Assembly (NCBI GenBank): GCA_002496845.1
Contig: DALQ01000085.1
Span: forward strand, 1-15,497
Direction of reading: 5' to 3'
Length of the DNA stretch: 15,497 nt
Source: Euryarchaeota archaeon UBA495
GTDB taxonomy: Archaea > Thermoplasmatota > Poseidoniia > Poseidoniales > Poseidoniaceae
The notes under the pieces were generated by a model that was given only the letters and a program-made list of their open reading frames with translations, was not told the origin of the DNA and did no database searches. This document shows positions 795 to 15,497 of the stretch, piece by piece. The translations under genes and the position numbers were made by a program. Positions within the stretch are counted from its first letter, which is position 1. The number at the start of each line of letters is the position of its first letter.

Positions 795-815
795 GGCCCC
801 CCCACACAAGACCTC

Positions 816-821
816 TTTTTA
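816..821 (-). promoter_or_regulatory. TATA-like box (TAAAAA on minus strand) for the transferrin-like gene
   Basis: AT-rich hexamer centred about 24 nt upstream of ATG 794. No Shine-Dalgarno lies between them, which fits a leaderless archaeal-type promoter. Confidence 0.4.
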
Positions 822-826
822 GGAAT

Positions 827-849
827 TCCGAAATATCCCTGTTTTCGGA
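827..849. promoter_or_regulatory. Inverted repeat TCCGAAA-N9-TTTCGGA in divergent promoter region
   Basis: Read directly: 827-833 tccgaaa and 843-849 tttcgga are exact reverse complements. It overlaps the 8-bp palindrome GGAATTCC at 822-829. Confidence 0.4.
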
Positions 850-853
850 CATC

Positions 854-871
854 CTTAACCAAGTGGCTAAG
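854..871. promoter_or_regulatory. 18-bp imperfect dyad CTTAaCCAagTGGcTAAG, candidate metalloregulator operator
   Basis: 14 of 18 positions are self-complementary. It lies between the two divergent TATA-like boxes of an iron-related gene pair. Confidence 0.35.
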
Positions 872-933: not shown

Positions 934-2199
934 ATGACGAAGACACTTCGTGCACTTGCCCTGACCCTGACTTTGCTCCTGGCTTCCCTTGCGGGTTGCG
1001 TTGCAGAAGAAGAAGAAACGACCGAAACTCCTGCCGAGGAAACCAAGCCTGCGTTCTTGGACACCGCTGACGCAGGGTACACCTACGCCTCGAACGTGGA
1101 CAACCACCGTTCGCTGATGCTGGACCTCTGCGACATCAAGACCGCAGCCAGCGAAAGCGACTGGGACACGGCCACCATGATTTACATGAACGGCAAGAAC
1201 GCTCAGAAGGACGACGGTTCCTTCCGCACGCTCGCTGGATTCGCAGCCGCCTCCGGCAAGAACCACAACTACGACGCATACCACGGCATGGACGGCGCCA
1301 TCGGCGCCCACATCATGAGCGCGCTCAACGGTGACGGCGACTTCGCCGGCACCTCGGACACCGTCCGCTACCAAGGCATCGCCAAGCTGACCGTCAACAT
1401 GGGCATGGTCGGCTACACGATCCACGAGATCAACTCCGCTGTTGCCAAGGCTGACGCCGGCAACATCGACGACGACACCGGTGCACCTCACAACTGGGAC
1501 GAAGGCTGGGCCTTCTTCCACGGACCGGATGAGCACTACGACTGCTCTCCTGCCAAGGTCATGGAGAAGCGCGCCAGCGACTTCGGCACGGCTGACGCTG
1601 ACGGCGTTGCGGCCACCTTCAAGGCCACCGAGCAAGCCATGGTCGACGGACTCGCCGCCCTCCAAGCTGGCGACGAAGCTGGCTACGACGCTGCCGCCGA
1701 GACCGTGGTGAAGAACATCATCATCACCTACTCCCAAGCGACGCTGAAGTACACCTCCAAGATGGACAACGCCGATTCCGGCGCCAAGTACCAGGCTGAG
1801 GGCTACGCCTTCTGGAAGGCCATCGAGGCCTACGCGGCCCCCTACACCGACGGCTGCTACAACATGGCCGTTCACAAGGTCTTCATGATGGGCGACATCG
1901 ATGCAGCCGCTTGTGACGCCTTCATCTGGACCAACGGATCCATGGACAGCACCGGCACCAACGACACCTGCTACAACACCGTGACCCACCAAGTGTCCAC
2001 GGACGTCAGCAACGAGACCGAGTGCGACGGCTACGCGGCCATGTACTTCCAGGACATGTACGGCGCCCAGAAGATCAACGAGATCCTCAACTTGCAGGAC
2101 GCGACCCAACTCGGCACGTCCTACGACGTTGCGCCTCACCTCGCACACGTCTGGGCCCACTACGGCATCACGGCCGCCGACATCGGCGCCATGAGCTGA
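934..2199 (+). CDS. Acidic, Cys-containing secreted lipoprotein of uncertain function, possibly DUF4856/FEA1-like and iron-associated
   Basis: 421-aa ORF. The N-terminus MTKTLRALALTLTLLLASLAGC is a signal peptide plus lipobox, followed by an acidic linker EEEETTETPAEE. The block HNWDEGWAFFHG resembles the hWDEafGYf block I associate from memory with DUF4856/imelysin-neighbour lipoproteins. There are six non-lipobox Cys and three N-x-S/T sequons. Third positions are strongly C/G-biased. The 609-aa antisense ORF is V/G/R-rich. Confidence 0.85.
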   Translation: MTKTLRALALTLTLLLASLAGCVAEEEETTETPAEETKPAFLDTADAGYTYASNVDNHRSLMLDLCDIKTAASESDWDTATMIYMNGKNAQKDDGSFRTLAGFAAASGKNHNYDAYHGMDGAIGAHIMSALNGDGDFAGTSDTVRYQGIAKLTVNMGMVGYTIHEINSAVAKADAGNIDDDTGAPHNWDEGWAFFHGPDEHYDCSPAKVMEKRASDFGTADADGVAATFKATEQAMVDGLAALQAGDEAGYDAAAETVVKNIIITYSQATLKYTSKMDNADSGAKYQAEGYAFWKAIEAYAAPYTDGCYNMAVHKVFMMGDIDAAACDAFIWTNGSMDSTGTNDTCYNTVTHQVSTDVSNETECDGYAAMYFQDMYGAQKINEILNLQDATQLGTSYDVAPHLAHVWAHYGITAADIGAMS

Positions 2200-2251
2200 G
2201 GCTGGCAAAGCGTCACAACGCATACGCGTCCCAAAACGGAGGCCATGAGCA

Positions 2252-4582
2252 ATGGAGCGTCGCGCCATGCGCGCGCTCCTGCTCATGGTCGTCCTTTTGG
2301 GATCGCTGCTCAGCACAACAGTCGCAGCAAACGACTCCACAGAGACCTTCACCATCACCGGTGACGCACTGTTGGAAAACGGCCAGCCTGCTGGCACGTC
2401 TTACGTGCGGCTTGACGACCAAGGGTCTGTGTCGACCAACAACGGCGCGTACGTCATTGAAGGCGTGACGCCTGGGAGACACACCCTCCGCACCTACTTC
2501 ATGAACGACGGCCACGTTGCCGTTTACCGTGAAATCATGGTGACGGGCGACATGACCGTGGACTTCATGATCGGTCAAAACGTGGTGACAGCTTCGTTGA
2601 GCAACGCAGACAGCAACGCCGCGAATGCAACCCTCCGGACGCCCAGTACGCCATGGAGTGCGGCAAACGGGTGGGCTGAATTTGGCCCTTACCCACACGA
2701 CACAATGGTTGAAATTCACGCCCAATTCGATGACGGCACGCAAGCATCGCATGCAATTTTGATGGATGGCGGCAAAATAGGCGAGCCTTGGCGAAACCAC
2801 ATCCCCATCTCGGAGGGATCTACCGGAGTCTACGGCTACGTCCATGATCAGCTTGGCGGCCCTGTTCCCAACATCGACGTGGTTTCAGGAAATCACTCGT
2901 CACGCACGGATGCCACCGGCTTCTACACGATGCAGGGGCTAGAAATCAACGTCAGCCACACGTTTGCATACACCCAGCAGGGGCTCGAGGTGGCATCGAA
3001 CAACAGCGCTGTTTTCCACGGGGATTCAGGATGGATGAACATCAGCCTCGAACGAACCCTGACGCTGCCTGGGAATGTGTCCTTCACGACCGTACCTGCA
3101 ATTGTGCCAATGGAACCCTTCAGGGTCGAGTGGACGCAGGCGCCTCATGCCACGCGCTACGTGCTCACCCTCGGCGACGTCCCAATGTACGACGGCCCCT
3201 CAACTGGGTTCACCTTCACGCCTCAAACCGATGGAGAACACCGCTTTGGCCTACAAGCCGTCAACCCAAACGGGTCGACCTCGGCCTATCAGGATCTTTT
3301 GATGGTGGTCTTGCCTGAGCAAGATGAAAACGGATATTGGACCGCGGGCATGAGCTGGACCTATGACCAGACCTACACCCCGGCCGCGCGAGATGGAGTG
3401 CTGCGGCGCACCTACACGTGCTTGGGTTCTGAAACAATCACCGACGCGTTTGGCGAGGAACGTCCAGCCTACGTGGTGAACGTTGAGGATCCGAGGTACA
3501 TGCCCGATGAACGGTCGATGCGTTGGGTCGATCAACAGTCACTGTTGACCATCAGGAGCTATTGGGCCGACGACCCCTCAAGTTCCAACCAATTCACCGA
3601 TGCCTCTTCCGGGTGGGGTTTTACCACCAGTACCGGAGCAAGCACATCCCTAATGGAAGACCCAAGTTCGTTGTGGTTCAATCGAACGACCATCATTGGT
3701 GTCCCAGGGCATCCAAACGGATACACGGACACAAACAGCAGCGTGCTGGTTGAACACAACGTCAGCGTGACCACGCCTGCTGGCACATTCATCACCACCA
3801 AGTACACCATCACCGACCTCAACGACGGCGTCGTGTCATGGGAATTGTACTACAACGCGACCGTGCGAAACCATGTCAAAGTGGTCGATCGACTACCCGG
3901 CACCCACTCGGAAATGGTCGAAAGGGTTCTGGTCAGCTACGATGTACCGACGGAGCCTGTGTTCATCACAGAGTCTGGCCAGATTATGACCAAGGAAACG
4001 ACCGTTCAGTGGGGGGCCTTCCCCGGAGCGACGGAGTACGTACTGCTCCAAAACGGCGTCGAGGTCTACACTGGAAACGCCACAAACGCGACGGTCACAG
4101 ACCTCAATGATGGAAATTACGCGTTCCACCTGCGCGCAATCATGGACGATGGGCGCCAGTTGGACGCCGAAGAATTGGTGCTGGAGGTGGCCTATGAAAG
4201 CCTACCACCAACCCTCGCAAATTCCACGGGCACCGCCACGCGAGGCGATACGGTTGATCTCGCATGGACGCATGAACGCGGTGTCGAATACATGCTCTTG
4301 CATGAAAAGCCCAGTGGGGCATCGGAGACCACAAGCGACCTCGTGGACCTCACATGGTCTGTGGAGGTCAATGAGAACGGGCGACACCGGTTCCGGGTCA
4401 AGGCCATCGAGGCAGACGGCACCACCTCAGACTGGTCAGACTCTGTTGTCGTGCTGGTCGAGGAAGGCGAAGGGGCTTCAAGCCGCAGCATTGGGGAAAA
4501 CAACCCATGGCTGTTGGCAGCATGCGTGCTTGTCTTCGTGGCCATTGGTCTGCAACTTCTTCTCAGGGGGCGACCTGATTGA
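2252..4582 (+). CDS. Secreted, C-terminally membrane-anchored multidomain surface glycoprotein (2 CarboxypepD_reg-like, 3 FN3-like modules, unassigned central domain)
   Basis: 776-aa ORF with GGAGG at 2238-2242, 9 nt upstream. Signal peptide is MERRAMRALLLMVVLLGSLLSTTVAA. Two beta-sandwich-like segments are present (GAYVIEGVTPGRHTL; GYVHDQLGGPVPNIDVVSGNHSSRTDATGFYTMQGL). Three modules share W-x3-P/x-x-AT/V-x-Y-V/M-L-L: RVEWTQAPHATRYVLTL, TVQWGAFPGATEYVLLQ and DLAWTHERGVEYMLLH. The C-terminal TM is NPWLLAACVLVFVAIGLQLLLRGRPD. I counted 15 N-x-S/T sequons. Confidence 0.85.
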   Translation: MERRAMRALLLMVVLLGSLLSTTVAANDSTETFTITGDALLENGQPAGTSYVRLDDQGSVSTNNGAYVIEGVTPGRHTLRTYFMNDGHVAVYREIMVTGDMTVDFMIGQNVVTASLSNADSNAANATLRTPSTPWSAANGWAEFGPYPHDTMVEIHAQFDDGTQASHAILMDGGKIGEPWRNHIPISEGSTGVYGYVHDQLGGPVPNIDVVSGNHSSRTDATGFYTMQGLEINVSHTFAYTQQGLEVASNNSAVFHGDSGWMNISLERTLTLPGNVSFTTVPAIVPMEPFRVEWTQAPHATRYVLTLGDVPMYDGPSTGFTFTPQTDGEHRFGLQAVNPNGSTSAYQDLLMVVLPEQDENGYWTAGMSWTYDQTYTPAARDGVLRRTYTCLGSETITDAFGEERPAYVVNVEDPRYMPDERSMRWVDQQSLLTIRSYWADDPSSSNQFTDASSGWGFTTSTGASTSLMEDPSSLWFNRTTIIGVPGHPNGYTDTNSSVLVEHNVSVTTPAGTFITTKYTITDLNDGVVSWELYYNATVRNHVKVVDRLPGTHSEMVERVLVSYDVPTEPVFITESGQIMTKETTVQWGAFPGATEYVLLQNGVEVYTGNATNATVTDLNDGNYAFHLRAIMDDGRQLDAEELVLEVAYESLPPTLANSTGTATRGDTVDLAWTHERGVEYMLLHEKPSGASETTSDLVDLTWSVEVNENGRHRFRVKAIEADGTTSDWSDSVVVLVEEGEGASSRSIGENNPWLLAACVLVFVAIGLQLLLRGRPD

Positions 4583-5682
4583 GTGGACCTGAACCTCGCA
4601 AGGCATTGGCTGCGATACAAATCGTGGTGCTACTCGTCCTCGGGTACGCGATGCTCAACGTCTTCAGCGACTCCCGAAATGCAGAAGAAGACGGCACAAT
4701 CGTCATCACAGACACGACCGGCGAGGTGCACGCATTCGATGCACCACCGGATCGAATTGTGCTCTCCAATACCTTCGGAGCAACCGCGATGCGGATGCTC
4801 GATGCGGACATGAGCTCCGTGGTTGGAGTGAGCGGAGATTTTGATGACGAGGCCTTGTGGCCCGAATTGGTTGACCGACCGTGGGTCCAGTTTTCCGCTC
4901 ATTCAGAAATCGACTTCGAGGCCTTGCTCGACGTCCGACCCGACGTGTATGTGGTGTTTGCAACCAACGGCATGGTTGATACGGCAGCCATTCGAGAGCG
5001 ATTGGCCCCAATGGGAATCGACGTTGTCGCATTTGATTTCTACAAGTACGACGCGCTGCGGGAAGAATTCAAACAGCTGGCCATCATGCTCGATCGGATG
5101 GACAGTTATGAGGAGTTGATGCAGGAATTCGACGAAATCGAAGCCGACATGGCCGTGGCTCTGGAAGGTCTCGAAGATTCCGAACGGCCTGCAGTGGTGA
5201 TGGAACATCACGCTTCCTTGACCCGTGACCCAGTGGTGTTGACCGGTTCATCCCAATGGGACGACATCATTCGAATCGCAGGAGGAACAAACGTGTTCAG
5301 CGACCTACCTGGTCACACCACACACGTCGACATGGAAGCCATCCTCGATGCCGACCCCGAGGTGATGATGTTTGACGGCATTACGTTTGAGCTCGGTTTC
5401 AACATGGACGACCCGAAGGGCGGGTGCGGCGAACATTTCAACCTCATTCAGAGCCGGCCTGGCTTCGACTCCATGCAGGCCATCGAAGAGGAACGCATGC
5501 TGATTTTTTCGGGCTCCTTTGCCGGCCCAATGATGATCCACGGGCTGCCCTTCATCGCTGAGCAATTCCACCCAGAACGCTTCGATGAAGGGACTGGAGC
5601 TGCCCTGTTGGACAGCTTTTACGCCGACCATTTTGCAGTGGATCGCGACGGCACATTCCTATGCAAGATGACAGGTGAGTAA
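4579..5682 (+). CDS. ABC transporter substrate-binding protein, Peripla_BP_2 (FecB/BtuF/HemT-like) class, N-terminal TM anchor
   Basis: 367-aa ORF. The TTG start at 4579 overlaps the upstream TGA (TTGA), with CAGGGGG 8 nt upstream. The TM anchor is ALAAIQIVVLLVLGYAMLNVF. The layout is typical of iron-siderophore/heme/cobalamin binding proteins (PDRIVLSN, LDVRPDVYVVF, ILDADPEVMMF). It sits immediately upstream of the FecCD permease. Confidence 0.8.
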   Translation: MSGPEPRKALAAIQIVVLLVLGYAMLNVFSDSRNAEEDGTIVITDTTGEVHAFDAPPDRIVLSNTFGATAMRMLDADMSSVVGVSGDFDDEALWPELVDRPWVQFSAHSEIDFEALLDVRPDVYVVFATNGMVDTAAIRERLAPMGIDVVAFDFYKYDALREEFKQLAIMLDRMDSYEELMQEFDEIEADMAVALEGLEDSERPAVVMEHHASLTRDPVVLTGSSQWDDIIRIAGGTNVFSDLPGHTTHVDMEAILDADPEVMMFDGITFELGFNMDDPKGGCGEHFNLIQSRPGFDSMQAIEEERMLIFSGSFAGPMMIHGLPFIAEQFHPERFDEGTGAALLDSFYADHFAVDRDGTFLCKMTGE

Positions 5683-6724
5683 CGTGGAAGATGTGGCCGA
5701 AGCCTATCTTCACGGGCAGCGGCAACGCATGCTCTTTCTTCTGATGGCATCGGTCATGACGGCCGTTGGCGCCATCCTCGCGATGGGGTTTGGGTCATCT
5801 GAAAACCTCTCCATGCGGTCCACGCTTGGGATTCTTTTCGGATTCCAATCGGCTGAAGGGCTCCAAATGGAAATCCTGGTCAATTTGCGGCTACCACGTG
5901 TGCTCATCGCGCTGGTGGGAGGGGCCGCACTTGCGATGGCAGGCACGATGATGCAAGGGGCCCTCGGGAACCCGCTTGTTTCGCCCCTCACCTTGGGCGT
6001 CGCATCGGGTGCTGGCCTTGGGGCCGCTCTTGCCATCGTGCTTGATATCACGATTTTTGGATTGGCGGAATTTGCGATCCTTGGAAACGCATTCATCTTC
6101 GCCATGCTTGTGGTCGCCTTCATCGTCAAGCTCGGCGACATGTCAACCGTCACCAGTGAATCCTACATTTTGGTCGGCATTGCGATCACGTTCATCGCTG
6201 GAGCCATCATCCAGACCATGACATACTTCGCGACCGATGCGGAAATCTCCCAACTCACACACTGGAGTTTCGGCAGTTTGTCGCGACCTAATCTCGCGCA
6301 AGCGATCTTAATCGGTTTGACTATCCTTTCCTTCATGCCATTTGGCATGGTGGCAGCGTGGGATCTGAACACCCTCGCGGTGGGTGGCGACGATTTTGCC
6401 GCGTCGACTGGTGTCGACCCTCGGAAAACCCGCCGGTCCATCCTCATCCTTTCTGCAACCATGACGGCTGTGGTCATTGCCTTCACGGGCATCATTGGAT
6501 TCCTTGGATTGGTTGCTCCGCACATCTCACGGATTTTGGTCGGCAACGACTACCGTGTTTTGATCCCCACCTCGGCGGTCATGGGCGCAGCGGTCCTCCT
6601 CGTGGCAGACACCATCGGCCGGACCCTGTTCGCACCAATCGTACTCCCAGTTGGCATAATGCTCTCCATCTTGGGAGGACCATTTTTCCTCTACCTGTTG
6701 ATGCTTCGGAGGAAAAGCCTGTGA
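5675..6724 (+). CDS. FecCD/BtuC-family ABC transporter permease
   Basis: 349-aa polytopic ORF with hallmark blocks LRLPRVLIALVGGAALAMAGTMMQGALGNPLVSPLTLGVASGAGLGAA and GIIGFLGLVAPHISRILVGNDYRVLIP. GTG 5675 overlaps the upstream TAA. An alternative GTG at 5684 lies 5 nt after AGGTGAG, so the start is uncertain by 3 codons. Confidence 0.9.
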   Translation: MSNVEDVAEAYLHGQRQRMLFLLMASVMTAVGAILAMGFGSSENLSMRSTLGILFGFQSAEGLQMEILVNLRLPRVLIALVGGAALAMAGTMMQGALGNPLVSPLTLGVASGAGLGAALAIVLDITIFGLAEFAILGNAFIFAMLVVAFIVKLGDMSTVTSESYILVGIAITFIAGAIIQTMTYFATDAEISQLTHWSFGSLSRPNLAQAILIGLTILSFMPFGMVAAWDLNTLAVGGDDFAASTGVDPRKTRRSILILSATMTAVVIAFTGIIGFLGLVAPHISRILVGNDYRVLIPTSAVMGAAVLLVADTIGRTLFAPIVLPVGIMLSILGGPFFLYLLMLRRKSL

Positions 6725-7548
6725 CCGATATGCTCCTTCAAGCGACGAACCTGCGCTTTGCGTGGGGCGATCGTCCGGTGTTGGAAGGGGTTGACCTCGA
6801 GGTCCACAGCGGCGAAGTCGTCGCCTTGCTGGGTCGAAACGGTGCGGGTAAAACCACACTTTTGCGGATGCTAAACGGCCTGCTCACCCCGCAAGGAGGC
6901 GAAGTGCTCGTCGGCGGAGATGCCTTGGGAATGATGGGGCTTACGGAACGTGCAAAACGCACAGCTTACGTTCCACAAAGCATCACAAGCGCCTTCCCGA
7001 TGCGGGTGATTGACGTCGTCTTGTTGGGTCGCCGGCCACACGTGACGTGGCGATTGAGCGATTACGATGTCCAGGTCGCCACGGATACCCTCAAGATGCT
7101 TGGGCTCAATGAATTCGCCTTCCGCCGGTTCACGGAACTCTCCGGCGGTGAACGTCAGCAGGTGATCTTAGCAAAGGCCATGGCGCAGGAGGCTGGCGTG
7201 CTGCTGCTCGATGAACCCACAAGCGACCTCGATCTCAACAACCAAATTGGGGTGATGAAGCGTATTCGCAGCGTGGTCGATACCGATGAAAAGCGTGGAG
7301 CAGTCATCGTGATGCACGACCTGAACATCGCTGCGGGTTTTGCCAATCGTGTTGTGCTTCTCCATGAAGGAAAGGTTGAGGCCGTAGGCTCACCGCGCGA
7401 TGTGCTCACGAAAGAAAATTTGGCCAAGGTTTTCATGGTCAACTGCACGGTTGATGAGGCACCGACGGATGGCCGACTGAGGATTCACGTGCACGACGAA
7501 GTAAAACCGTCGCTGCAAAATGAAAAGATCGAGGATGATGCACAATGA
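6721..7548 (+). CDS. ABC transporter ATP-binding protein (FecE/FepC/HmuV-like)
   Basis: Walker A is GRNGAGKTT, signature LSGGERQQ, Walker B VLLLDEPTSDLD and H-loop VMHDLN. The GTG at 6721 overlaps the permease TGA (GTGA) and has GGAGGA 7 nt upstream; ATG 6730 is an alternative. The track ORF 6358-7548 only adds an in-frame extension across the permease gene. Confidence 0.9.
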   Translation: MTDMLLQATNLRFAWGDRPVLEGVDLEVHSGEVVALLGRNGAGKTTLLRMLNGLLTPQGGEVLVGGDALGMMGLTERAKRTAYVPQSITSAFPMRVIDVVLLGRRPHVTWRLSDYDVQVATDTLKMLGLNEFAFRRFTELSGGERQQVILAKAMAQEAGVLLLDEPTSDLDLNNQIGVMKRIRSVVDTDEKRGAVIVMHDLNIAAGFANRVVLLHEGKVEAVGSPRDVLTKENLAKVFMVNCTVDEAPTDGRLRIHVHDEVKPSLQNEKIEDDAQ

Positions 7549-8405
7549 GCCAAGAGACCGATGACCAAAACACCGATGCCACCGCTGAGGCGGACGCCCA
7601 TCGCGAAGCCCATGACGGGGAAGATCCCTCAGCCAACGTTGCAATTTGGTTGCATGAGACGCGCGCAGCAACCCTCTCAACGTTGGCCGTAAAACCAGGC
7701 ATCGAAGGATTCCCGATTGGATCGATTGTCCCGTTTGCGCTTGATGGAAGCGGCCGTCCGTTCATTCTGGTGGCGAGCATCGCTGCGCACACACGGAACA
7801 TCGACGCAGACCCACGGGCTTCCCTGTTCATTTCGGACCCAGAGGCCAAGGGAGACCCCCAATCAAGCTGGCGTGCATCGTTGCTTGGAGAAATGCGCCA
7901 CGTTGCCGTGGAAGGAGAAGAGGTTGATCTGCCCGAAGAGCGGATTGACCGCGTCACGCCAGAAGAACACGCGCATTTGTTGGCGCGCTACGTGGAACGG
8001 GTGCCTGCGGCCGAATCGTACGTGAAGGTCCACAACTTCAGTTTCTACCGGATGAGCACCATCGAACGCATCCGCTACATCGCGGGCTTTGGGCGCATTT
8101 GTTGGATTCCGGGGCGCAAATACATGGAAGCCGTGGCCGATACCGGACTTGCAGAAGCCGCCCCTGAGGCCATTGAACACATGAACGACGACCATGTTGA
8201 TGCCATGGTGACCATCGTCAAAGGCCATCGCGGCATCGATGTCGAGTCTGTGAACATGGTCGACCTTGATCCAAACGGCATGATGCTGGAAACGCATGAG
8301 CCACATCACCTGATGTACGTCTCTTTCGAGAACCGAATCACGGCAGAGAGCATGCGAACCGAGATCATCAACAGCGTGGTCGCTGCAAGGAAAGCCATTG
8401 GTTGA
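7545..8405 (+). CDS. HugZ/HutZ-like heme-utilisation protein (PNPOx-like split barrel + DUF2470)
   Basis: 286-aa ORF. ATG 7545 overlaps the ATPase TGA (ATGA), with GAGGA 9 nt upstream. The block GFPIGSIVPFALDGSGRPFILVASIAAHTRNIDADPRASL is typical of the HugZ-like FMN-binding split-barrel family. The C-terminal part (AIEHMNDDHVDAMVTIV...) is DUF2470-like. Confidence 0.8.
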   Translation: MSQETDDQNTDATAEADAHREAHDGEDPSANVAIWLHETRAATLSTLAVKPGIEGFPIGSIVPFALDGSGRPFILVASIAAHTRNIDADPRASLFISDPEAKGDPQSSWRASLLGEMRHVAVEGEEVDLPEERIDRVTPEEHAHLLARYVERVPAAESYVKVHNFSFYRMSTIERIRYIAGFGRICWIPGRKYMEAVADTGLAEAAPEAIEHMNDDHVDAMVTIVKGHRGIDVESVNMVDLDPNGMMLETHEPHHLMYVSFENRITAESMRTEIINSVVAARKAIG

Positions 8406-8430: not shown

Positions 8431-9645
8431 TCAGTCAAAGTCGAGGTCGATTTTCTTCGGGCCATCGATGCTGAGAATCTTGACGTCGATGGGCTTGCCC
8501 ACGGCATAGAACATCTCGATGTGGTCCATGCTCATCCCGTCCATCTTTGAGATGTGAACCATGCCGGTGACCTCACGCTCGACCAACGCAACAAGAAGGC
8601 CGTAAAAGGGCCCTCCGTCCTTGCGGTACAGGTGTTTGACGACCGTGCCGGTGTAGGTTCCTCCCACTTCGAAGGCTGCAAGCGGATCGGCGGCTTCCGT
8701 GGCGTCGCCGTCGGATTGGGGCGTCACGTCCTCCCAACGAAACTTCGCTTCGTTGCCGAAGAGCACCTTTCGGACATGCTCGATGGGGTACGTGCCCTTG
8801 CCGTCGATGCCTGACTCGTCCCAGGGCTGGGTGTGCCGAACGGTCAGGCCTGGCGTCATGTCCTCCGTGACCTTCGAGCCGTCCCGCCGGTGGAAGGTGA
8901 CGGTAAGGCGTGGGCCGCGAAACAAGGTGGAGAACAACCCCCCTTCCACAGCGATTTCAACGGCCGAGTGGTCCGCACGGGTCCACCCTTCTGGAAAATC
9001 ATCGTCAATGAAGTCCCCCGTATGTCGCTGGCCGCCGTCAAAGGTGAGCACGTCCCAGGTACCGAACCGTCGAAGCATGGCGTCTTGGCGAGCGATTTCC
9101 TCCTCGCTCACGGGCTCCCGCGTGGCCAAGAGAGCCTCGATCTTTGCAGGAAGGTCCGCCACCGTCGACACCTCTGGGTGCGCCAACACCTCCTCGCTGA
9201 GGTTCCCCTTCGGATTGGCCAGCACCACGATGGGGAGGACTTCGAGCATCTCAATGCGGTCGATGGACAAGGAACATCGTTGCAGCATCCGCACCTTGGC
9301 CCGCAGTTTTTCGATGACCGGCTTGGGCGGCTCGCCCTTGTCCAACAAGCGTTGTTGCACAAGGTCATTGTCGCGCAAATGGACGTCGCCACCCCAATTC
9401 TTCACTTCGAGCAGAATCACGGCCCGGTCGGTGATGGCGATGACGTCGACTTCACCTGAGCCACGTCGCCGATCGGGGTCCGGAATGCGAATGGCCAGAT
9501 GCACATGCCGCGTGCTTTTGACGCGCTTCGCGGCCGCGCCCACGGCGTGCTCCGCTTTCCAAGAGCGGACCTCGCGCTGGGGCATGTGCTCGCGACGAGC
9601 AGACCGGGTGGAACGCCACCAGCCGATGCGCGCAAAGGGGCCCAT
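8431..9645 (-). CDS. NERD (nuclease-related) domain protein with C-terminal S1-like RNA-binding domain
   Basis: 404-aa ORF. The NERD-type core is GEVDVIAITDRAVILLEVKNWGG. The C-terminus GTYTGTVVKHL...YGLLVALVEREVTGMVHISKM...VGKPIDVKILSIDGPKKIDLDF matches the S1 OB-fold pattern. The 324-aa plus-strand ORF opposite is S/R-rich. The start could also be M21 (nt 9585). Confidence 0.8.
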   Translation of the reverse strand: MGPFARIGWWRSTRSARREHMPQREVRSWKAEHAVGAAAKRVKSTRHVHLAIRIPDPDRRRGSGEVDVIAITDRAVILLEVKNWGGDVHLRDNDLVQQRLLDKGEPPKPVIEKLRAKVRMLQRCSLSIDRIEMLEVLPIVVLANPKGNLSEEVLAHPEVSTVADLPAKIEALLATREPVSEEEIARQDAMLRRFGTWDVLTFDGGQRHTGDFIDDDFPEGWTRADHSAVEIAVEGGLFSTLFRGPRLTVTFHRRDGSKVTEDMTPGLTVRHTQPWDESGIDGKGTYPIEHVRKVLFGNEAKFRWEDVTPQSDGDATEAADPLAAFEVGGTYTGTVVKHLYRKDGGPFYGLLVALVEREVTGMVHISKMDGMSMDHIEMFYAVGKPIDVKILSIDGPKKIDLDFD

Positions 9646-9713: not shown

Positions 9714-10541
9714 TCATCGGTGACGACGTTGTGAAATCGCCTCGTCGCCCGGCAGGTAAAGGTCCGAAGCCAAGCCGACGGAGGCGAAAATGCGAAGCAG
9801 CAGGTAGGACAAGTCAACCTGCCCTTTCAGCAGGCCGTGGCGAGCGGATCGGGGGAAGGCGTGGTGGCCTGCGTGCCAGCCTTCCCCAAGCGAAACAAGC
9901 GCCACGAACCGGTTGTTTCGGGCCTCTCCCGCTCCGTCGAAGTCCTGCTTGCCCCACAGGTGGCCTACAGAGTTGACCGCGTCACCGGCGTTGTAGTAGA
10001 GGACGCTGGCCACCCAAGCGATGATCACGCCGTCCCACGCCATCAGGTGGTACGCCAAGAGAAAAGGCAACATCTGGAACGACGAGCCAATCAGGAAGCC
10101 GAAGCGGGTCGAAAGGAAGCGAAGAAAGCGGTCATCGAGCACGTCCTTGGCCAAAGCGTCATGTCCGCCTGGGCTCATCGGACGAAGGAACATGTCAACG
10201 ATGTATCGAAGCGGCCCTCCAAGCGCATACACGAGGCACAACCCGCGGTTCCTGATGCCAAGATACCATCCACAGTGGGCGTACCAAAACCCGTCGTTAA
10301 GCGGGCTGTGAGGGTCGTTGGGTCCGTCCGAGTCGGTATGGTGGAGACGGTGATTTCCGACCCACTCCGCCGGTGGTCCAGCAGGAAGGGCGGCCAACAC
10401 CAAGGCATAGAGCAGCGGCTTGCGCAAGTTGGCCGAACGGTGGGTCAACACGCGATGGTAGGCCACAGTGATGCCAAATCCCACTGCAAAATACCACGTG
10501 AGCAGGAGCACCCCCATCCACTGCTGTGCTGAGAGTTCCAT
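9714..10541 (-). CDS. Membrane fatty-acid (acyl-CoA/acyl-lipid) Delta9-type desaturase, OLE1/DesC family
   Basis: 275-aa ORF with three His boxes at canonical spacing: AYHRVLTHRS, NHRLHHTDSDGPNDPHSP and GEGWHAGHHAFPRSARHG. GGAGA lies 7 nt upstream, and the start is 2 nt after the upstream stop. Confidence 0.9.
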   Translation of the reverse strand: MELSAQQWMGVLLLTWYFAVGFGITVAYHRVLTHRSANLRKPLLYALVLAALPAGPPAEWVGNHRLHHTDSDGPNDPHSPLNDGFWYAHCGWYLGIRNRGLCLVYALGGPLRYIVDMFLRPMSPGGHDALAKDVLDDRFLRFLSTRFGFLIGSSFQMLPFLLAYHLMAWDGVIIAWVASVLYYNAGDAVNSVGHLWGKQDFDGAGEARNNRFVALVSLGEGWHAGHHAFPRSARHGLLKGQVDLSYLLLRIFASVGLASDLYLPGDEAISQRRHR

Positions 10542-10543
10542 GT

Positions 10544-11440
10544 TCAGTTCTCCAAGCCGAGCTCAGCACGCATACGCTCGAGGTGTCCATGCGTGTGCTC
10601 CACGAAGAAACCGTGCATCAGGAACCGGTAACTGAGACCGGTAGGGCCGACCAAAATCATCGGGAATCGGTTGTAGGCGATGTCTGCAAAGTGGCTTGCA
10701 CCAACGATGTCGTCAATGAGGAGGCCAATGGAATGATCGAATTGGAAGGAGTTGATGGCCGCCTCGTATTCTGGAGCGGTCAACCAGAAGCAAAAGGTGG
10801 TCTTGAACAGTTCATGAGCGGTTTCAAAATCGAGGAATTGCGTCCACTTTTTCCGGTCCACGCCGTAGTCGAGGCGCACCGGCTTCCAATTCTCCCAAGA
10901 CAATTCGTCCTTGGGGACAGGCCAGCGGGAACGATCTGGCTCGGTGAGGTCCCGCATCGTCATCAGCACGCCCTGGTCGTGATGAACGAAGGTCTGAACC
11001 ATGAGGTCCCTGATCATCTTCGGATGGATGAGGACCGGGTCGACTTCGTCTTGACCGGCGTTGTCAATGACGAAATTCAGCAGGTTGGATTCCGCCCAGA
11101 AATGACGCAAGATGAGGACGTTGGCTTCAGGTCGGACGAACCATTTCATGAAGAAGCAAATTTGCCATTGAAGGAAGCCATGGGCCCGCCACTGAATGGG
11201 TGAAAGTCGCTTGAGGTAGTAGGTGATGTGCAGGGTGATGGTCAGGATGATTTTCAACGTCGGGAGCACGATACGGCGAAGCGGATTTTGAAGGTCCTTG
11301 GTCCAGTATTTCTTCGCGATAGGATCCAGCGGCATGGCCTCATCGCCCGCCATGGCATCAAGGATGCTCGCTGGCATTTTGCCATGGTTTCTGGCCATGG
11401 CTTTGCGCCGCTTCCGCTCCATCCGAGCGGTGCTACTCAT
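10544..11440 (-). CDS. Hypothetical protein, no family recognised
   Basis: Open frame with C/G third-position bias and a W/F/H-rich sequence (FLQWQICFFMKWFVRPEANVLILRHFWAESNLLNF...). ATG 11440 lies 7 nt after GGAGGAG; GTG 11443 in the track is one codon upstream. It overlaps the upstream gene's stop by 8 nt. Confidence 0.7.
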   Translation of the reverse strand: MSSTARMERKRRKAMARNHGKMPASILDAMAGDEAMPLDPIAKKYWTKDLQNPLRRIVLPTLKIILTITLHITYYLKRLSPIQWRAHGFLQWQICFFMKWFVRPEANVLILRHFWAESNLLNFVIDNAGQDEVDPVLIHPKMIRDLMVQTFVHHDQGVLMTMRDLTEPDRSRWPVPKDELSWENWKPVRLDYGVDRKKWTQFLDFETAHELFKTTFCFWLTAPEYEAAINSFQFDHSIGLLIDDIVGASHFADIAYNRFPMILVGPTGLSYRFLMHGFFVEHTHGHLERMRAELGLEN

Positions 11441-12176
11441 CACCCATCTCCTCCAACTGCAACCGATACAAACGGGCGACCACCTTGGCGGTCATTTCGA
11501 TGCGTTCGACCACCAGCGTGTCGGTGCACACCTCATCGAGCATGGTGTAGAAACGCTGCATATGATCGTCGTCGTTGGCGCCGTGATAAGTCATGAACCG
11601 CGTGATGCCCTCACGCTCACAGAGCTCTTCCATCCGCGTGGCCCAACCGATGGCCATACGCTCACCGAGGCCTTCGATGATCCACATCGCGCCAAGCATG
11701 TCCACAGGATTCGGTTGGCTTGCGCGTTGCATCATAAAGGCGTGGAAGGCTTCACTGCCCACGTTTTTACCACGGCTGAGGATGGTCTCAATCTCCCCTC
11801 CTGCGTTGACGTAGTCCTGTTCCAGCATGGTGTAGTCCCGGTGTTCGTCCACCGCATGACGGAGGATGAGCGAGCGCATCTCGCTGTGATCACGGTCCAT
11901 CGAGGAGGCGGCCCGAGCAATCCACCGAGAGCCTTCCACCACCTGCTGACGCAGGTTCACAAGGAGACGACGGTGGTCTGCCAGCGTGTACGTCCCCAAG
12001 TCGAGACGGCGAAGAATCGGCACGGTCACAAGGTCGCGCTCGAAGCCAATCCACACACGCAACAAGCGCCGCAAGGCGTCTTGTGCATGTTCCTTCAACT
12101 CAGGAACGTCGTTCGCGCCAATGGCTTCAGCAGCTTGCTGAACCGGGATTCCGTCAATTGTAATGTTACCGTCCAT
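11433..12176 (-). CDS. Heme-oxygenase-like di-iron oxidase/oxygenase (HDO; iron-containing redox enzyme family, CADD/UndA/PqqC-like fold)
   Basis: 247-aa all-helical-looking ORF. H198-G-A-N-D202-D-D-H205 (nt 11562-11585) gives HxxxDxxH. Upstream acidic/His candidates are E81, E99, H107, E111-H112 and E168/E172. This ligand spacing resembles CADD-type HDOs as I remember them. The gene overlaps the KAS III gene by 11 nt. Confidence 0.65.
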   Translation of the reverse strand: MDGNITIDGIPVQQAAEAIGANDVPELKEHAQDALRRLLRVWIGFERDLVTVPILRRLDLGTYTLADHRRLLVNLRQQVVEGSRWIARAASSMDRDHSEMRSLILRHAVDEHRDYTMLEQDYVNAGGEIETILSRGKNVGSEAFHAFMMQRASQPNPVDMLGAMWIIEGLGERMAIGWATRMEELCEREGITRFMTYHGANDDDHMQRFYTMLDEVCTDTLVVERIEMTAKVVARLYRLQLEEMGDE

Positions 12177-13308
12177 TGTTATCTACCACCGTCAGATGCA
12201 TGTATGTCGTGTTGAAGCGACCGCTCTCAGGAACAAAGCACAGGATGCGTTCTCCCACCTGAGGGTTCTGCGTTCTCACGAATTCGTCGAGCATGATAAA
12301 CAGCGAGGCGGCGCCCGTGTTGCCTCGTGAGTACAGGTTCGTCCACCATTTTTCTTCTGGAATGCCCACGCCTGCGGCATCGAGCATGTCAAGGATCTTT
12401 GGCCTGAAATGATGCGAAGAATAGTGGCAGAGGAAGTGGTCCACCTCAGAAGGCACGTTGAGGCCTTCTTGCACAAGCCGCACGTAGCCGTCAACGCCCA
12501 GCCGAACAATGTGGTCGAGGAGGCGGACCTCTTGGCGGAGCAACAGGGCCCCTTCTCGTTCCGCATCTGCATAGGTGTCGTAGTCCTGCCAAGTGCGTTC
12601 CTCGTCGGCCTTGCCGCTGGAGCCCACGCTCATGCAGGTTGGCAAAGCGTGCGCGTGAGACCAACCCTTCATCCAATCGATGCGGAAGGACAAGCCCTTG
12701 GGGCGAGGTGATGTTTCCAAGAGCAAGGCTCCAGCGCCGTCGGACAGCATCCAACGAAGGAATTCTGTGTTGAAATCCACGGTCTTCTTGGCGAAAGTGG
12801 ATTCTGTCGCGGCCTCGTAGCGTTGACGCTTGAGCAAACGCGATGGCATCTCTGTGGCGACGACCAGCGCAGCGTCGTGTTCATCGCACCGCAAAGCAAG
12901 CCATGCGCCTTTGAGCGCCATCATCGAAGAGGAACAAATGGACTGAGCAGTGAGAATTTCCACCTCAGCCATGCCGAGCCCAGCCTGAACAAAGGAAGCC
13001 AAGCCCGGGACGGGATGATCGCCCTGAGTGGATGCGACGGCCAGCATACCCACCTGGTGGATGGGTCGGAAAGCGCGGTCCATGCATTCCTGAGCGGCCT
13101 GCACCGCCATTTCCGTGTTTGAAACGGTGGTCCTTTGGTTGGCATCAATCCCGTAGTGGCGCGTTTGGATACCGTTGGCTTTCTGGATTTGACCACGGAG
13201 ACCTGAGGGTTGTCCATTCACAGCCCCCAGCACGGTCTCAACCTGATCGTTGGTGATGGCAGGCCCTGGCAGGTGCCAGCCTGTGGAAGTGATGTAGACC
13301 GTGTTCAT
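12166..13308 (-). CDS. FabH-like 3-oxoacyl synthase III (KAS III) family condensing enzyme
   Basis: The Cys-His-Asn triad context is QSICSSSMMAL, FLCHYSSHH and YSRGNTGAASL. ATG 13308 overlaps the upstream TGA (ATGA) and has GGAGGA 7 nt upstream. That favours it over the track start at 13323, whose ATG lies inside that SD. Confidence 0.85.
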   Translation of the reverse strand: MNTVYITSTGWHLPGPAITNDQVETVLGAVNGQPSGLRGQIQKANGIQTRHYGIDANQRTTVSNTEMAVQAAQECMDRAFRPIHQVGMLAVASTQGDHPVPGLASFVQAGLGMAEVEILTAQSICSSSMMALKGAWLALRCDEHDAALVVATEMPSRLLKRQRYEAATESTFAKKTVDFNTEFLRWMLSDGAGALLLETSPRPKGLSFRIDWMKGWSHAHALPTCMSVGSSGKADEERTWQDYDTYADAEREGALLLRQEVRLLDHIVRLGVDGYVRLVQEGLNVPSEVDHFLCHYSSHHFRPKILDMLDAAGVGIPEEKWWTNLYSRGNTGAASLFIMLDEFVRTQNPQVGERILCFVPESGRFNTTYMHLTVVDNNGR

Positions 13309-13907
13309 GCTGAATTCCTCCATGGGAGAGAGGATACGCCGTTGTCACGCTCCCACTTCCAACAACGGTGGATTTCCAACAGGTAGGGCATGACGCCAAA
13401 CACCAGCATGATCGCCATGTAACTGGCCGCGAAGTTGCCGTTCAATCCGAGGGATTCTTTGCGCCACTCAAGCCCCATGCTCCCTGCCCAATTGAGGGTG
13501 ATGAAATCGATGAACGTCTGCCAGCGCCGAACCACGATGAGCAAGAGGATGAAGAACGGAAGGGTCGCGAGGTAACTGTGCGCATGCACTTCCCAGATGC
13601 TGATTTCACGCAAATCTTGAGCGTATTTCACGTCGTAGTGTGCCACGAGTTCGTGCGCGATGAAGGCGAGGATGCACAAAATTAGCACCAGTACGTTGAC
13701 TTCGAACAGGAGCCCCAAGAGGATGGGGATGCCCACCTGCACGCCCATGATGGCGTGGACCAGAGCTTCTCGAAGACCTGCGGTGGATTCGATGTTGGTG
13801 GCTCGGTGGCAGAACCAATCAACGCCCCCAGCCACAACCCAAAGCGGCAGCAAAACGTAGAGCAGAATGTTCAGGACAAGTGTCGACGCGTCCAACGTCG
13901 GGTCCAT
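13305..13907 (-). CDS. His-rich polytopic membrane protein, unknown family (about 5 TM)
   Basis: Hydrophobic segments are LVLNILLYVLLPLWVVAGG, HAIMGVQVGIPILLGLLF, VLVLILCILAFIA, LATLPFFILLLIVV and YMAIMLVFGVMPYLL. Loop-edge His clusters are DWFCHR, AHELVAHYD, EVHAH and EIHRC. I prefer ATG 13907 over track start 13955 for two reasons: the extra 16 codons include rare TTA TTA, and a TTATTAT box lies 27 nt upstream of 13907. Confidence 0.75.
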   Translation of the reverse strand: MDPTLDASTLVLNILLYVLLPLWVVAGGVDWFCHRATNIESTAGLREALVHAIMGVQVGIPILLGLLFEVNVLVLILCILAFIAHELVAHYDVKYAQDLREISIWEVHAHSYLATLPFFILLLIVVRRWQTFIDFITLNWAGSMGLEWRKESLGLNGNFAASYMAIMLVFGVMPYLLEIHRCWKWERDNGVSSLPWRNSA

Positions 13908-13930: not shown

Positions 13931-13937
13931 ATAATAA
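13931..13937 (-). promoter_or_regulatory. TATA box (TTATTAT on minus strand) for the membrane-protein/KAS III operon
   Basis: AT-rich heptamer centred 27 nt upstream of ATG 13907, with no SD. The geometry matches the other first-gene starts in the window. Confidence 0.45.
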
Positions 13938-13954
13938 GACAACGCCGAAGTGCA

Positions 13955-14407
13955 TTATCCATCATGCAGTCCTACTAAACCTGCAAGAGGTTCTGCTTCG
14001 GCATGCCACCCGGAGAGATGAACGGTTGGCGCCGGCAATGCTCCCTCGCCGTGTGATGCAACGCTCAGCATGAACGCATGGAGGCTTGCAAGCATGCTGG
14101 GCGAAGGCATGCCCTCAACGTGCTCGTTGGGCGCGAGGTACCACAGAACCTCGGGCACCTTGCCGCCGAACACGATGGGGGCTCCGATGACGATTGGATC
14201 TCGCAGCTCGATGTACGAATCCTGCTGGCTCATGAGCCAAATCTGCAGGTCCTCCCCCAGCGCGACCCGATCCAGAAGGCTGTCCACGGTCTTCGCGAGT
14301 TCGACCTTCTGAGCCTTGGGGCGCAGGTGATGCAAGTGTTTCATGTCCCCCAGCCCGAGGGCAGTCATGACGTCGTCGAGGGTCCATCCAAGCATCATTG
14401 AAGCCAT
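13955..14407 (-). CDS. Hypothetical protein (150 aa)
   Basis: This is the inner part of the 240-aa track ORF, starting at M91 (MASMMLGWTLDDVMTALGLG...). A CTTATA box lies 24-29 nt upstream. The longer version would cross an AT-rich promoter region and overlap the fasciclin gene start. I recognise no family. Confidence 0.6.
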   Translation of the reverse strand: MASMMLGWTLDDVMTALGLGDMKHLHHLRPKAQKVELAKTVDSLLDRVALGEDLQIWLMSQQDSYIELRDPIVIGAPIVFGGKVPEVLWYLAPNEHVEGMPSPSMLASLHAFMLSVASHGEGALPAPTVHLSGWHAEAEPLAGLVGLHDG

Positions 14408-14430
14408 GAACAGACGGTGGTATGAGGTGC

Positions 14431-14436
14431 TATAAG
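14431..14436 (-). promoter_or_regulatory. TATA box (CTTATA on minus strand) for the 150-aa gene
   Basis: Centred about 26 nt upstream of ATG 14407. It is bracketed by the inverted repeat ATGAGGT (14422-14428) / ACCTCAT (14449-14455). Confidence 0.45.
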
Positions 14437-14536
14437 GACAGGAATTATACCTCATTTGATTGTAAAACCGGGCTACATCGCACCTGTTCCTCGTCGTCGG
14501 AATTGGTTTCCTGCATCGTTGTGTGAGAAACACCTG

Positions 14537-14543
14537 ATTATAA
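14537..14543 (+). promoter_or_regulatory. TATA box (ATTATAA) for the fasciclin gene
   Basis: Centred 28 nt upstream of ATG 14568 with no SD. It is bracketed by the inverted repeat TGTGAG (14522-14527) / CTCACA (14544-14549). Confidence 0.5.
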
Positions 14544-14567
14544 CTCACATTGCGTGCAAAATGGGAC

Positions 14568-15497
14568 ATGAAGAAATCTGCCGCGTATGTCCTCATCGTT
14601 CTCCTGATGGCATCGACCCTGCCACTGCAAGCCAGCGCTGACGCCAGCCAAGACATCCCCTCAAACGCGGTGGCCACGGGCGTTCACGATTCTCTTGTGG
14701 CCGCCTTGACCCATGCGGACTTGGTGACCACCTTGCAAGGCACGGGACCGTTCACCGTGTTCGCTCCGACGGACACGGCCTTTGCTGAGGCGGGCATCGA
14801 TTTGAGCACCTTCGACACGCCCGAAGAAAACGCAACCCTCACCGCCATCCTGCTCCACCACGTGGTGGCCGGTTCGGTGCCCTCAAGCGCGCTCTCCGAC
14901 GGCATGTTCGCCACGACGGTGAACGGAGATCGGGTTCAGTTTGGCGTCGACGCCAACGGCGTGACCGTCAGCAACGCCAACGTCACCACCCCCGACGTCA
15001 TCGCCTCCAACGGCATCATCCACTTCATCGACAAGGTCATGCTTCCGCCGGTCGACATCCCCGCCACCGCTCAAACCACGGGCATCCACAACAGCCTCGT
15101 GGCCGCTGTGGTCCAGGCAGAACTTTTGCCCACGCTGCAGGGGTCCGGACCGTTCACGGTGTTCGCACCCACGGACCAAGCGTTCACCGACGCTGGCATT
15201 GACTTGGCCGATTTTGCCACACCTGAAGGAAAGGCCACGCTCTCCGACATCCTGCTCTACCACGTGGTCGGTGCCGATGTGCCTGCTGCTAACGTGACGG
15301 AGTGCATGACCGCGGACGCCGTCAACGGCCAGCCGCTTTCGTTCACCGTGAACGGTGGCGTGATGGTCAACGACGCGAACGTGGTCCTCACCGACGTCAT
15401 CTCCAGCAACGGGTTGATCCACGTCATCGACAAGGTGCTGATGCCCACGGACACCCCCAAAGACATCCCGCGCACGGCGCAATGCACCACGGTTCAC
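14568..15497 (+). CDS. Secreted tandem fasciclin (FAS1) domain protein (3' end beyond window)
   Basis: Absent from the ORF track because no stop lies in the window. Hand translation from ATG 14568 stays open for 310 codons to the window edge. It begins MKKSAAYVLIVLLMASTLPLQASA (signal peptide). Two FAS1 units follow, each with GPFTVFAPTD.AF...LL.HVV...SNG(I/L)IH.IDKV(M/L).P. Confidence 0.9.
   Translation, partial: MKKSAAYVLIVLLMASTLPLQASADASQDIPSNAVATGVHDSLVAALTHADLVTTLQGTGPFTVFAPTDTAFAEAGIDLSTFDTPEENATLTAILLHHVVAGSVPSSALSDGMFATTVNGDRVQFGVDANGVTVSNANVTTPDVIASNGIIHFIDKVMLPPVDIPATAQTTGIHNSLVAAVVQAELLPTLQGSGPFTVFAPTDQAFTDAGIDLADFATPEGKATLSDILLYHVVGADVPAANVTECMTADAVNGQPLSFTVNGGVMVNDANVVLTDVISSNGLIHVIDKVLMPTDTPKDIPRTAQCTTVH

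Follow-up and report, generated by a model that had tools for sequence, protein, structure and literature searches.

What would an uncultured marine archaeon make with genes for joining acyl chains and oxidising the result? The question is raised by a stretch of 15,497 nucleotides (nt) from Euryarchaeota archaeon UBA495 (contig DALQ01000085.1), called the window below, in which five tightly packed minus-strand open reading frames (ORFs), g1 to g5, span positions 9714-13907 (Table 1). The original prediction, made from the letters alone, had described an orphan operon for a His-rich membrane protein, a beta-ketoacyl-acyl carrier protein synthase III (KAS III), a heme-oxygenase-like di-iron oxidase (HDO), an unassignable protein and a Delta9-type desaturase. 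All five ORFs can be read directly from the sequence, and its guess of a specialised lipid-type product remains a reasonable reading. The reading that we favour, tentatively and at slightly less than an even chance, is that the cassette makes an oxidised, membrane-resident lipid in which two chains are condensed head to head, similar to the dialkylresorcinols (DAR) and cyclohexanediones (CHD).

The ketosynthase (KS) g2 has by far its highest-scoring match in the NCBIfam model of the StlD/DarB family, NF005293, over the whole model (positions 1-378 of 378; 359.7 bits, E 1.7e-107), whereas the FabH models TIGR00747 and PRK09352 score 64.3 and 92.3 bits against cutoffs of 292 and 249. The sequence of the StlD crystal structure 5gk0 aligns to residues 2-375 of g2 (E 7e-73). 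Cys125, Glu153, His295 and Asn330, all four shared with StlD, are kept in 14 of 15 family members, the sole exception being a doubtful ORF call, and His295 aligns with the StlD histidine that was mutated in 5gk2. The earlier assignment to KAS III therefore stands for the fold; more specifically, g2 is an StlD/DarB-like head-to-head cyclising ketosynthase, and its identity as a housekeeping FabH is excluded by the family scores. RefSeq and JGI label the ketosynthase 'beta-ketoacyl-ACP synthase III' and g5 'fatty acid desaturase'. As far as sequence can tell, the likeness to StlD/DarB points to dialkyl-cyclohexanedione/resorcinol chemistry, not to olefins of the UndA, UndB or OleA type.

The cassette is not confined to the window. 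One genome per species was scanned with the g4 protein, which gave 57 loci, nearly all labelled Poseidoniaceae, Poseidonia or Marine Group II (MGII) euryarchaeote. The suspected archaeal host is borne out by identities of g4 up to 99% (L001) and 98% (L002) in Poseidoniaceae/MGII contigs of metagenome-assembled genomes (MAGs); it belongs to Marine Group IIa (MGIIa; Poseidoniaceae). Identical proteins stand in NCBI under 'Euryarchaeota archaeon' MAGs, named hypothetical protein or fatty acid desaturase, and the public annotations of the cassette genes are generic. By tblastn, g1-g4 follow one another in the same order and orientation in every one of the 54 untruncated loci; contig ends cut the remaining three. 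The same g1-g4 arrangement is found in bacteria, namely a 3.7-Mb genome (L058), a Myxococcota MAG (L059), Halomonas beimenensis (L062), Endozoicomonas arenosclerae (L063) and a Pseudoalteromonas chromid (L156). The four genes lie at about 532,712-535,902 of CP021435.1 in H. beimenensis and at 702,872-706,049 of NZ_CP045419.1 in Pseudoalteromonas sp. THAF3. Since order and orientation are kept in both archaea and bacteria, the arrangement is more than chance. The conservation of the gene neighbourhood, which had been proposed as a check, thus holds for g1-g4, and the operon is no orphan. Three loci with an archaeal-type cassette (L003, L014 and L021; 79-97% identity) lie in bins named Salinimicrobium sp., Verrucomicrobiales bacterium and 'uncultured bacterium', and are probably mis-binned MGIIa contigs.

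A smaller unit emerges when more distant relatives are included. A clade of DUF6999 proteins (the family of g4) with 24-33% identity to g4 was sampled in 80 metagenome contigs (L074-L153), which were scanned with a DUF6999 subclade alignment and whose ORFs were called by a simple script; its members are probably soil bacteria. Wherever the contig allows, KS and HDO lie directly upstream of DUF6999, and in 57 of the 59 determinable loci they form one reading frame of about 600-650 amino acids (aa). The two are also fused in a 5.9-Mb genome (L154:3936-5810), as a single 624-aa product with PF08541 and PF14518, 4 kb from DUF6999; separate KS-HDO-DUF6999 trios occur in two further lineages. Everywhere KS and HDO are adjacent or overlapping, with DUF6999 always accompanying them. 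The fusion is strong evidence that both enzymes act on the same molecule in succession. What had been taken for a five-gene unit is accordingly reduced to the invariant core KS-HDO-DUF6999, with g1 confined to one marine clade and the desaturase replaceable. Neighbour-joining on the KS domain gave a rough tree, rooted with StlD, small and without resampling support, in which the two archaeal sequences pair and are nested in the g1-bearing marine bacterial clade. This is only an indication that the cassette may have been transferred from bacteria into the MGIIa lineage. Such a transfer would nevertheless best explain an acyl-based pathway in an archaeon, given the place of the archaeal KS inside the bacterial clade.

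The second core protein, g3, reaches Pfam PF14518 (Haem_oxygenas_2) with E 5e-4 and 20.2 bits, below the cutoff of 28.9; nearly all the listed g3 homologues bear this domain. In the Protein Data Bank (PDB), a profile of the g3 family finds 3dde, which has the heme-oxygenase-like fold (E 1e-9), and the HDO acetylenase MboA, 9ypi (E 0.013). Residues H107, E111, E168, H198, D202 and H205, which include the HxxxDxxH motif, are invariant in 19 sequences. In the KS+HDO alignment the set is kept in 13 of 15 sequences, most fusions included, and the two exceptions are doubtful ORF calls. Their spacing is like that of CADD, and they are the putative metal ligands. The HDO call with its HxxxDxxH motif appears to hold at superfamily level, and a 3-His/3-carboxylate ligand motif has been described for HDOs (PMC13108848). 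JGI names the HDO '3-oxoacyl-ACP synthase-3' and clusters it with the ketosynthase.

The third, g4, had been listed as a 299-aa protein of no assignable family. It belongs to Pfam DUF6999 (PF22523; E 4e-85, 285.5 bits against a cutoff of 27, model positions 5-275 of 275). H113, P140, H154, D155, D204, D235 and H276 are invariant, and E281 nearly so, in 41 sequences down to 20% identity. The AlphaFold2 (AF2) model is all-helical (pLDDT 92.6, pTM 0.87), and no strongly hydrophobic segment is found in the protein. All fold searches were made with Foldseek against the PDB, which returned nothing below E 0.5 for g4, and a profile search of the PDB sequences gave no match either. The idea that DUF6999 is a divergent HDO paralogue was rejected (hhalign probability against g3, 0.4%), and a Foldseek match to the HDO PolF (E 1.4, TM 0.15) is noise. 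The family is small, with 181 clusters at 50% identity among 1.84 billion representatives. A half-length DUF6999-like stretch with 40% identity, which may be a pseudogene, lies in an unannotated gap adjoining a cytochrome P450 on a Nostoc flagelliforme plasmid (L157; NZ_CP024793.1, 307725-308156).

The first gene, g1, is always the first of the cassette in MGIIa and the marine bacteria, and was not found in the distant clade by a hidden Markov model (HMM) search of all six-frame ORFs. To call it His-rich was an overstatement, with 7 His in 200 aa, yet six of them (H34, H51, H85, H90, H108, H110) are invariant among 33 aligned homologues. The same holds for the acidic residues D30, E40, E47, D92, E106 and E178, and for C33, R100, Y163, P174, Y175, R181 and C182. 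With four or five hydrophobic segments and an AF2 model of five long helices (pLDDT 92.7), g1 is predicted to be an integral membrane protein. From the order of the helices, the six histidines and several acidic residues would lie at one membrane face, and the conserved residues make g1 a probable metal-binding protein. No Pfam or NCBIfam model matches g1, no Pfam family was found for the 34 members of its family, and for g1, g3 and g4 alike there is no NCBIfam match at E <= 0.1. Its best Foldseek E is 1.8, which is no match. A truncated member of the desaturase family was considered and rejected (hhalign probability 0.1%; none of the 34 members has a Pfam match). NCBI calls g1 homologues 'diguanylate cyclase', a name unsupported in the lack of a GGDEF domain.

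The desaturase g5 behaves differently from the core. It matches PF00487 (E 1.7e-15, 57.9 bits against a cutoff of 29.7) and the human and mouse SCD1 structures 4zyo and 4ymk (E 3e-21), with HRVLTH, HRLHH and HAGHH aligned to the SCD1 His boxes. Only two hydrophobic segments exceed the strict threshold, where the SCD1/Delta9 type has four transmembrane (TM) helices; the call of a Delta9/SCD1-type three-His-box desaturase is upheld at superfamily level. In the 57 MGIIa loci, DUF6999 is followed by a g5-type desaturase in 14 and by an unrelated 290-aa gene of the FA_desaturase family, with boxes HNHTH, HIGNHH and HTAHH, in 28; 11 have no adjacent desaturase and 4 are too short to tell. A reading from tblastn that most MGIIa loci lack a desaturase was partly wrong, as gene calls revealed the unrelated FA_desaturase-family gene. 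In the Myxococcota MAG (L059), a g5 copy with 42-49% identity lies upstream of g1. Thus g5 is an accessory, swappable fifth gene, of two unrelated types or none.

The tight packing was checked junction by junction. ATGA at 13305-13308 joins g1 and g2. The stop codon of g2 (12166-12168) and the ATG of g3 (12174-12176) give an 11-nt overlap. The end of g3 at 11433 and the ATG of g4 at 11440 overlap by 8 nt, or by 11 nt with the alternative GTG start of g4 at 11443. Between the end of g4 (10544) and the start of g5 (10541) there is a 2-nt gap at 10542-10543. All these junctions agree with the earlier description. Of the GGAGG-like sites claimed for every internal start, those of g2 (GGAGG, 8 nt before the start), g4 (GGAGGAG) and g5 (GGAGA) were found, but g3 has only a weaker GGTGG. 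The start of g1 at 13907 (MDPTLDAS) is confirmed by 33 of 33 aligned homologues, which begin at the equivalent Met, and a longer ORF reaching 13955 is unsupported.

Upstream of g1, the TATA-like box reported before, CTTATTAT, was found and is the probable operon promoter. Of 48 Poseidoniaceae loci, 45 have a T/A-rich box, usually CTTTTTAT, whose first base lies 30-45 nt ahead of the g1 start codon; in most of them the box is embedded in a conserved ccggaattgtCTTTTTATc motif, which a GAGGGG-like site follows. In L007-L057 the motif ccggaattgtCTTTTTATcaaatgag is strongly conserved 30-45 nt upstream of the g1 start, again followed by a GAGGGG-like site. This motif is probably a promoter with a TFB-recognition element (BRE) and TATA box and a short leader, and it could help in finding co-regulated genes. 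Co-expression of the five genes, previously called very likely, is plausible. Upstream of the box, an ORF of up to 240 aa ends 47 nt before the g1 start. It is conserved (57-89%) only in the window-like clade (L001, L002, L004, L005 and L052), is absent upstream of g1 in loci outside that clade, and has no match in Pfam and NCBIfam searches. Its restriction to one clade and its position upstream of the TATA-like box told against adopting it as a sixth operon gene. Its stop codon overlaps the alternative, unsupported ATG of g1.

The bacterial loci add some neighbours. An HpnN/BstA-like RND protein, of the hopanoid/sterol transporter family, lies just upstream of the Myxococcota cassette (L059:4937-7459), and another adjoins DUF6999 in the unrelated bacterium with the fused KS-HDO (L154:10942-12903). 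The latter also has a methyltransferase and a ferredoxin nearby, and a PlsC-type acyltransferase at a distance of about 4 kb from DUF6999. Within the distant clade, one subclade stands out (L094, L095, L099, L110, L117, L123, L126 and L127 among others), in which a MacS/LiaS-like multi-TM HisKA_3 kinase and a NarL/LuxR-type regulator adjoin DUF6999 on either strand. They are present in about 25 of 55 distant-clade loci, and were rejected as a general feature of the cassette. No acyl carrier protein (ACP) and no other annotated gene for lipid biosynthesis, DarA or DarC for instance, was seen in flanks of up to 10 kb of the inspected archaeal and bacterial loci.

Gene structure, family assignments, the conserved catalytic and ligand residues, the synteny across domains and the KS-HDO fusion are all seen in the sequences. 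The substrates, the specific HDO reaction, the metal binding of g1 and g4, and what becomes of the product and what it does, we infer as follows. The ketosynthase g2 would join a 3-oxoacyl thioester to a 2-enoyl thioester, both of which arise as regular intermediates when fatty acids are made or broken down by beta-oxidation. DarB reportedly turns a 3-oxoacyl and a 2-enoyl unit into 4-carboxy-2,5-dialkylcyclohexane-1,3-diones (PMC5515871), and by this analogy g2 would yield a 4-carboxy-2,5-dialkyl-cyclohexane-1,3-dione. With Fe(II) and O2, the HDO g3 would then act directly on this labile compound. The simplest proposal is an oxidative decarboxylation similar to that of UndA, in which the loss of CO2 and of the C5 hydrogen would create a C4=C5 double bond, that is, a resorcinol tautomer. 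In the known systems the resorcinol is obtained with a separate aromatase, DarA or StlC; here the HDO would stand in for the missing DarA. As the intermediate is labile, aromatisation by the HDO in one step would explain why KS and HDO are so frequently fused. In UndA the carboxylate is bound at Fe1 and CO2 is removed with olefin formation, while other HDOs desaturate; since the known HDOs act on fatty or amino acids (PMC13108848), a lipid-type substrate of g3 is plausible.

DUF6999 and, in the marine clade, g1 would be further metal-dependent enzymes or redox partners at the membrane, which may introduce more oxygen or serve the HDO as electron donors. The fifth gene, whichever desaturase it encodes, would tailor the alkyl chains or supply unsaturated precursors. 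The desaturases, the HpnN-like transporters, the PlsC-type acyltransferase and the intramembrane-sensing kinases suggest a membrane lipid rather than a soluble product. Such a lipid would stay in or move between membranes and have a protective or membrane-modulating function. That the cassette was found in 57 species loci of Poseidoniaceae, preceded by a conserved promoter motif, is in keeping with a role in the core of the cell rather than with a sporadic secondary metabolite. A bolder version, which we regard as doubtful, is that KS-HDO-DUF6999, with g1 in marine hosts, constitutes an unrecognised and widespread pathway to a novel kind of oxygenated dialkyl-aromatic or quinone-like membrane lipids, in which DUF6999 and g1 would be membrane-associated metallo-oxidases of new folds and whose product in MGIIa would be a core component of the cell, acquired from bacteria.

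Several observations weigh against a DAR/CHD-like membrane lipid. The score of g2 is below the curated StlD/DarB cutoff (359.7 against 450 bits) and also below that of the DarB model NF053539 (311.9 against 550). For the first of these reasons we treat g2 as belonging to a sister group of StlD/DarB and not as a member; it could run another head-to-head reaction, such as pyrone formation. The fused homologue of L154 comes closer to the 450-bit cutoff, with 431. UndA is not among the PDB matches of the g3 family profile at E <= 10, and the nearest solved relatives of g3 are 3dde and the acetylenase MboA. As the profile does not detect UndA, the decarboxylase role of g3 is derived from chemical logic only. 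The metal binding of DUF6999 and g1 is read solely from invariant His, Asp and Glu residues, in two proteins without a fold match. No acyl carrier or activating enzyme is linked to the cassette, and the neighbouring transporters, kinases and desaturases each occur in particular clades only.

Four other explanations were compared with this reading. The product could be a small diffusible signal, an autoinducer of the cyclohexanedione or resorcinol type whose identity is tuned by the oxidases. Brameyer et al. in 2015 reportedly found that DarB-type products act as signals in Photorhabdus, and dialkylresorcinol also appears in quorum-sensing papers. The kinase and LuxR/NarL-type regulator beside DUF6999 would suit a signal, and such a two-component pair also flanks the Myxococcota cassette. 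On the other hand, the kinase is of the multi-TM intramembrane-sensing type and is limited to one subclade, on either strand, and neither a LuxR solo nor any receptor accompanies the cassette in MGIIa, Halomonas, Endozoicomonas or Pseudoalteromonas. The HpnN-like transporters, the desaturases and the membrane-embedded partner suit a membrane lipid better, and the synteny extends over 57 species loci of MGIIa. We therefore consider a signal unlikely.

We find a hydrocarbon or olefin pathway, in which a thiolase-fold enzyme would cooperate with an UndA-like HDO, an UndB-like desaturase or both, less probable still. UndB, of the membrane-desaturase superfamily, and OleA form olefins, and the ketosynthase is of the same fold class as OleA. 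The HDO superfamily does include olefin-forming enzymes (PMC13108848). However, g2 is StlD/DarB-like over its full length (E 1e-107) and not OleA-like, and no OleBCD genes are annotated in the inspected flanks. The g3 family profile misses UndA in the PDB, the desaturase aligns with the SCD1 His boxes and is dispensable or replaceable, and the invariably linked DUF6999 is given no role. The suggestion of UndA/UndB chemistry in the original prediction is weakened by the same facts.

A redox-active alkyl-hydroxyquinone or hydroquinone, whose resorcinol would be hydroxylated by DUF6999, g1 or both to serve as a membrane electron carrier or antioxidant, appears improbable to us as well, attractive though the idea is. 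In its favour, up to three or four putative O2/metal enzymes would be devoted to one scaffold, at least one of them membrane-embedded, the 57 syntenic species loci belong to an aerobic surface-ocean archaeal family, and sorgoleone biosynthesis follows a similar logic. Against this, the proposal is inferential throughout, the cassette has no methyltransferase or prenyltransferase as a constant neighbour, ubiquinone is already available to Halomonas and Pseudoalteromonas, and g1 and DUF6999 are only putative oxygenases. Finally, a chance placement of housekeeping fatty-acid genes (FabH and a membrane desaturase) near unrelated unknown genes, as the RefSeq/JGI names 'beta-ketoacyl-ACP synthase III' and 'fatty acid desaturase' might suggest, can be dismissed as highly improbable in view of the FabH scores (64-92 bits against cutoffs of 249-292, compared with 360 for StlD/DarB), the strict cross-domain synteny with HDO and DUF6999, the KS-HDO fusion and the fact that no other fab genes were seen nearby.

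The remaining genes of the window are listed in Table 1. An iron/heme acquisition gene set (934-8405, plus strand) stands beside this cassette of several putative iron enzymes, and it does so only in the window-like clade (L002, L005). The next gene on the strand of g5, 68 nt further downstream, encodes the NERD nuclease-related protein, with no obvious T-run terminator in between; in other MGIIa clades a NERD gene is found at another place. Two long antisense ORFs, 568-2397 and 14883-15497 (both minus strand), look spurious.

Table 1. Features of the 15,497-nt window; the cassette genes are given first, in order of transcription
Feature	Position	Strand	Remarks
g1	13305..13907	-	200 aa, predicted five-helix membrane protein, uncatalogued family
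g2	12166..13308	-	380 aa, StlD/DarB-type beta-ketosynthase, KAS III fold
g3	11433..12176	-	247 aa, heme-oxygenase-like (HDO), 3-His/3-carboxylate set
g4	10544..11440	-	298 aa, DUF6999, all-helical, probable metal-binding
g5	9714..10541	-	275 aa, Delta9/SCD1-type membrane desaturase
TATA-like box CTTATTAT	13931..13938	-	starts 31 nt before g1 ATG
Upstream ORF	13955..14677	-	up to 240 aa, unit membership doubtful
Lipoprotein resembling phosphonate/ABC substrate-binding protein	~1-860	-	runs off left end
Fea1-type low-iron-inducible lipoprotein	934-2199	+	
Surface protein, CarboxypepD_reg/Y_Y_Y repeats	2252-4582	+	776 aa
Peripla_BP_2 binding protein	4579-5682	+	
FecCD permease	5675-6724	+	
ABC ATPase	6730-7548	+	
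HugZ-like CREG/PNPOx+DUF2470 protein	7545-8405	+	
NERD nuclease-related protein with C-terminal S1 RNA-binding domain	8431-9645	-	404 aa
Fasciclin (FAS1)-repeat protein	~14600-15497	+	runs off right end

In the surface ocean, few archaea are more abundant than those of MGIIa, which are uncultured, and a syntenic, bacterial-type acyl-condensing cassette in them bears on which lipids they make. If the bolder version holds, the product could be used as a chemical biomarker for the uncultured MGIIa archaea or could serve as a redox or photoprotective lipid. The cassette also provides a new context for HDOs, coupled or fused to a ketosynthase, and places the DUF6999 and g1 families, for which no relatives in fold are known, in a defined biochemical setting that can be tested. 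Since g1-g4 are present in cultured Halomonas, Endozoicomonas and Pseudoalteromonas, the question is directly accessible to genetics and mass spectrometry.

When the cassette is compared with known systems, the closest relatives of g2 are the ketosynthases of DarABC and StlCDE from Pseudomonas, Chitinophaga and Photorhabdus, which produce dialkylresorcinol and stilbene. The Cys/Glu/His/Asn residues are the same, and a head-to-head joining of two acyl-derived units would be expected in both. In contrast to these systems, the cassette has no linked DarA/StlC aromatase or DarC/StlE ACP, its ketosynthase scores below the curated cutoffs, and its hosts include archaea; the partners are instead an HDO, which in many bacteria is one protein with the KS, and DUF6999, joined in one clade by a novel membrane protein. 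Like the HDOs UndA, CADD, SznF, BesC, PolF and MboA, g3 has a heme-oxygenase-like fold signal and a 3-His/3-carboxylate set with HxxxDxxH, but unlike the characterised ones it is paired with or fused to a ketosynthase; its relative 3dde is unassigned and MboA is an amino-acid acetylenase. About a dozen HDOs have been functionally validated out of more than 10,000, and the word 'ketosynthase' never occurs in a 2026 review of the superfamily (PMC13108848). As in the Delta9 desaturases SCD1 and DesC, g5 has three His boxes (E 3e-21 to SCD1), but it is short, lies inside a specialised cassette and is exchangeable or absent.

A looser analogy is the sorgoleone pathway of Sorghum, where a desaturated acyl chain is built into a resorcinol ring and an O2-dependent ring oxidation leads to a lipophilic quinone. 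The logic of desaturase, resorcinol and oxidation is alike, whereas the sorgoleone enzymes (a type III polyketide synthase and a P450) are unrelated to those of the cassette. The earlier statement that no characterised pathway has this composition is supported by our literature search on the cassette, DUF6999, HDO with ketosynthase and archaeal dialkylresorcinol, which yielded nothing, nor was a curated name found. What appears to be new is a head-to-head lipid biosynthesis of the DarB/StlD type whose oxidative partners are unprecedented; for two of these partners no relative in fold is known.

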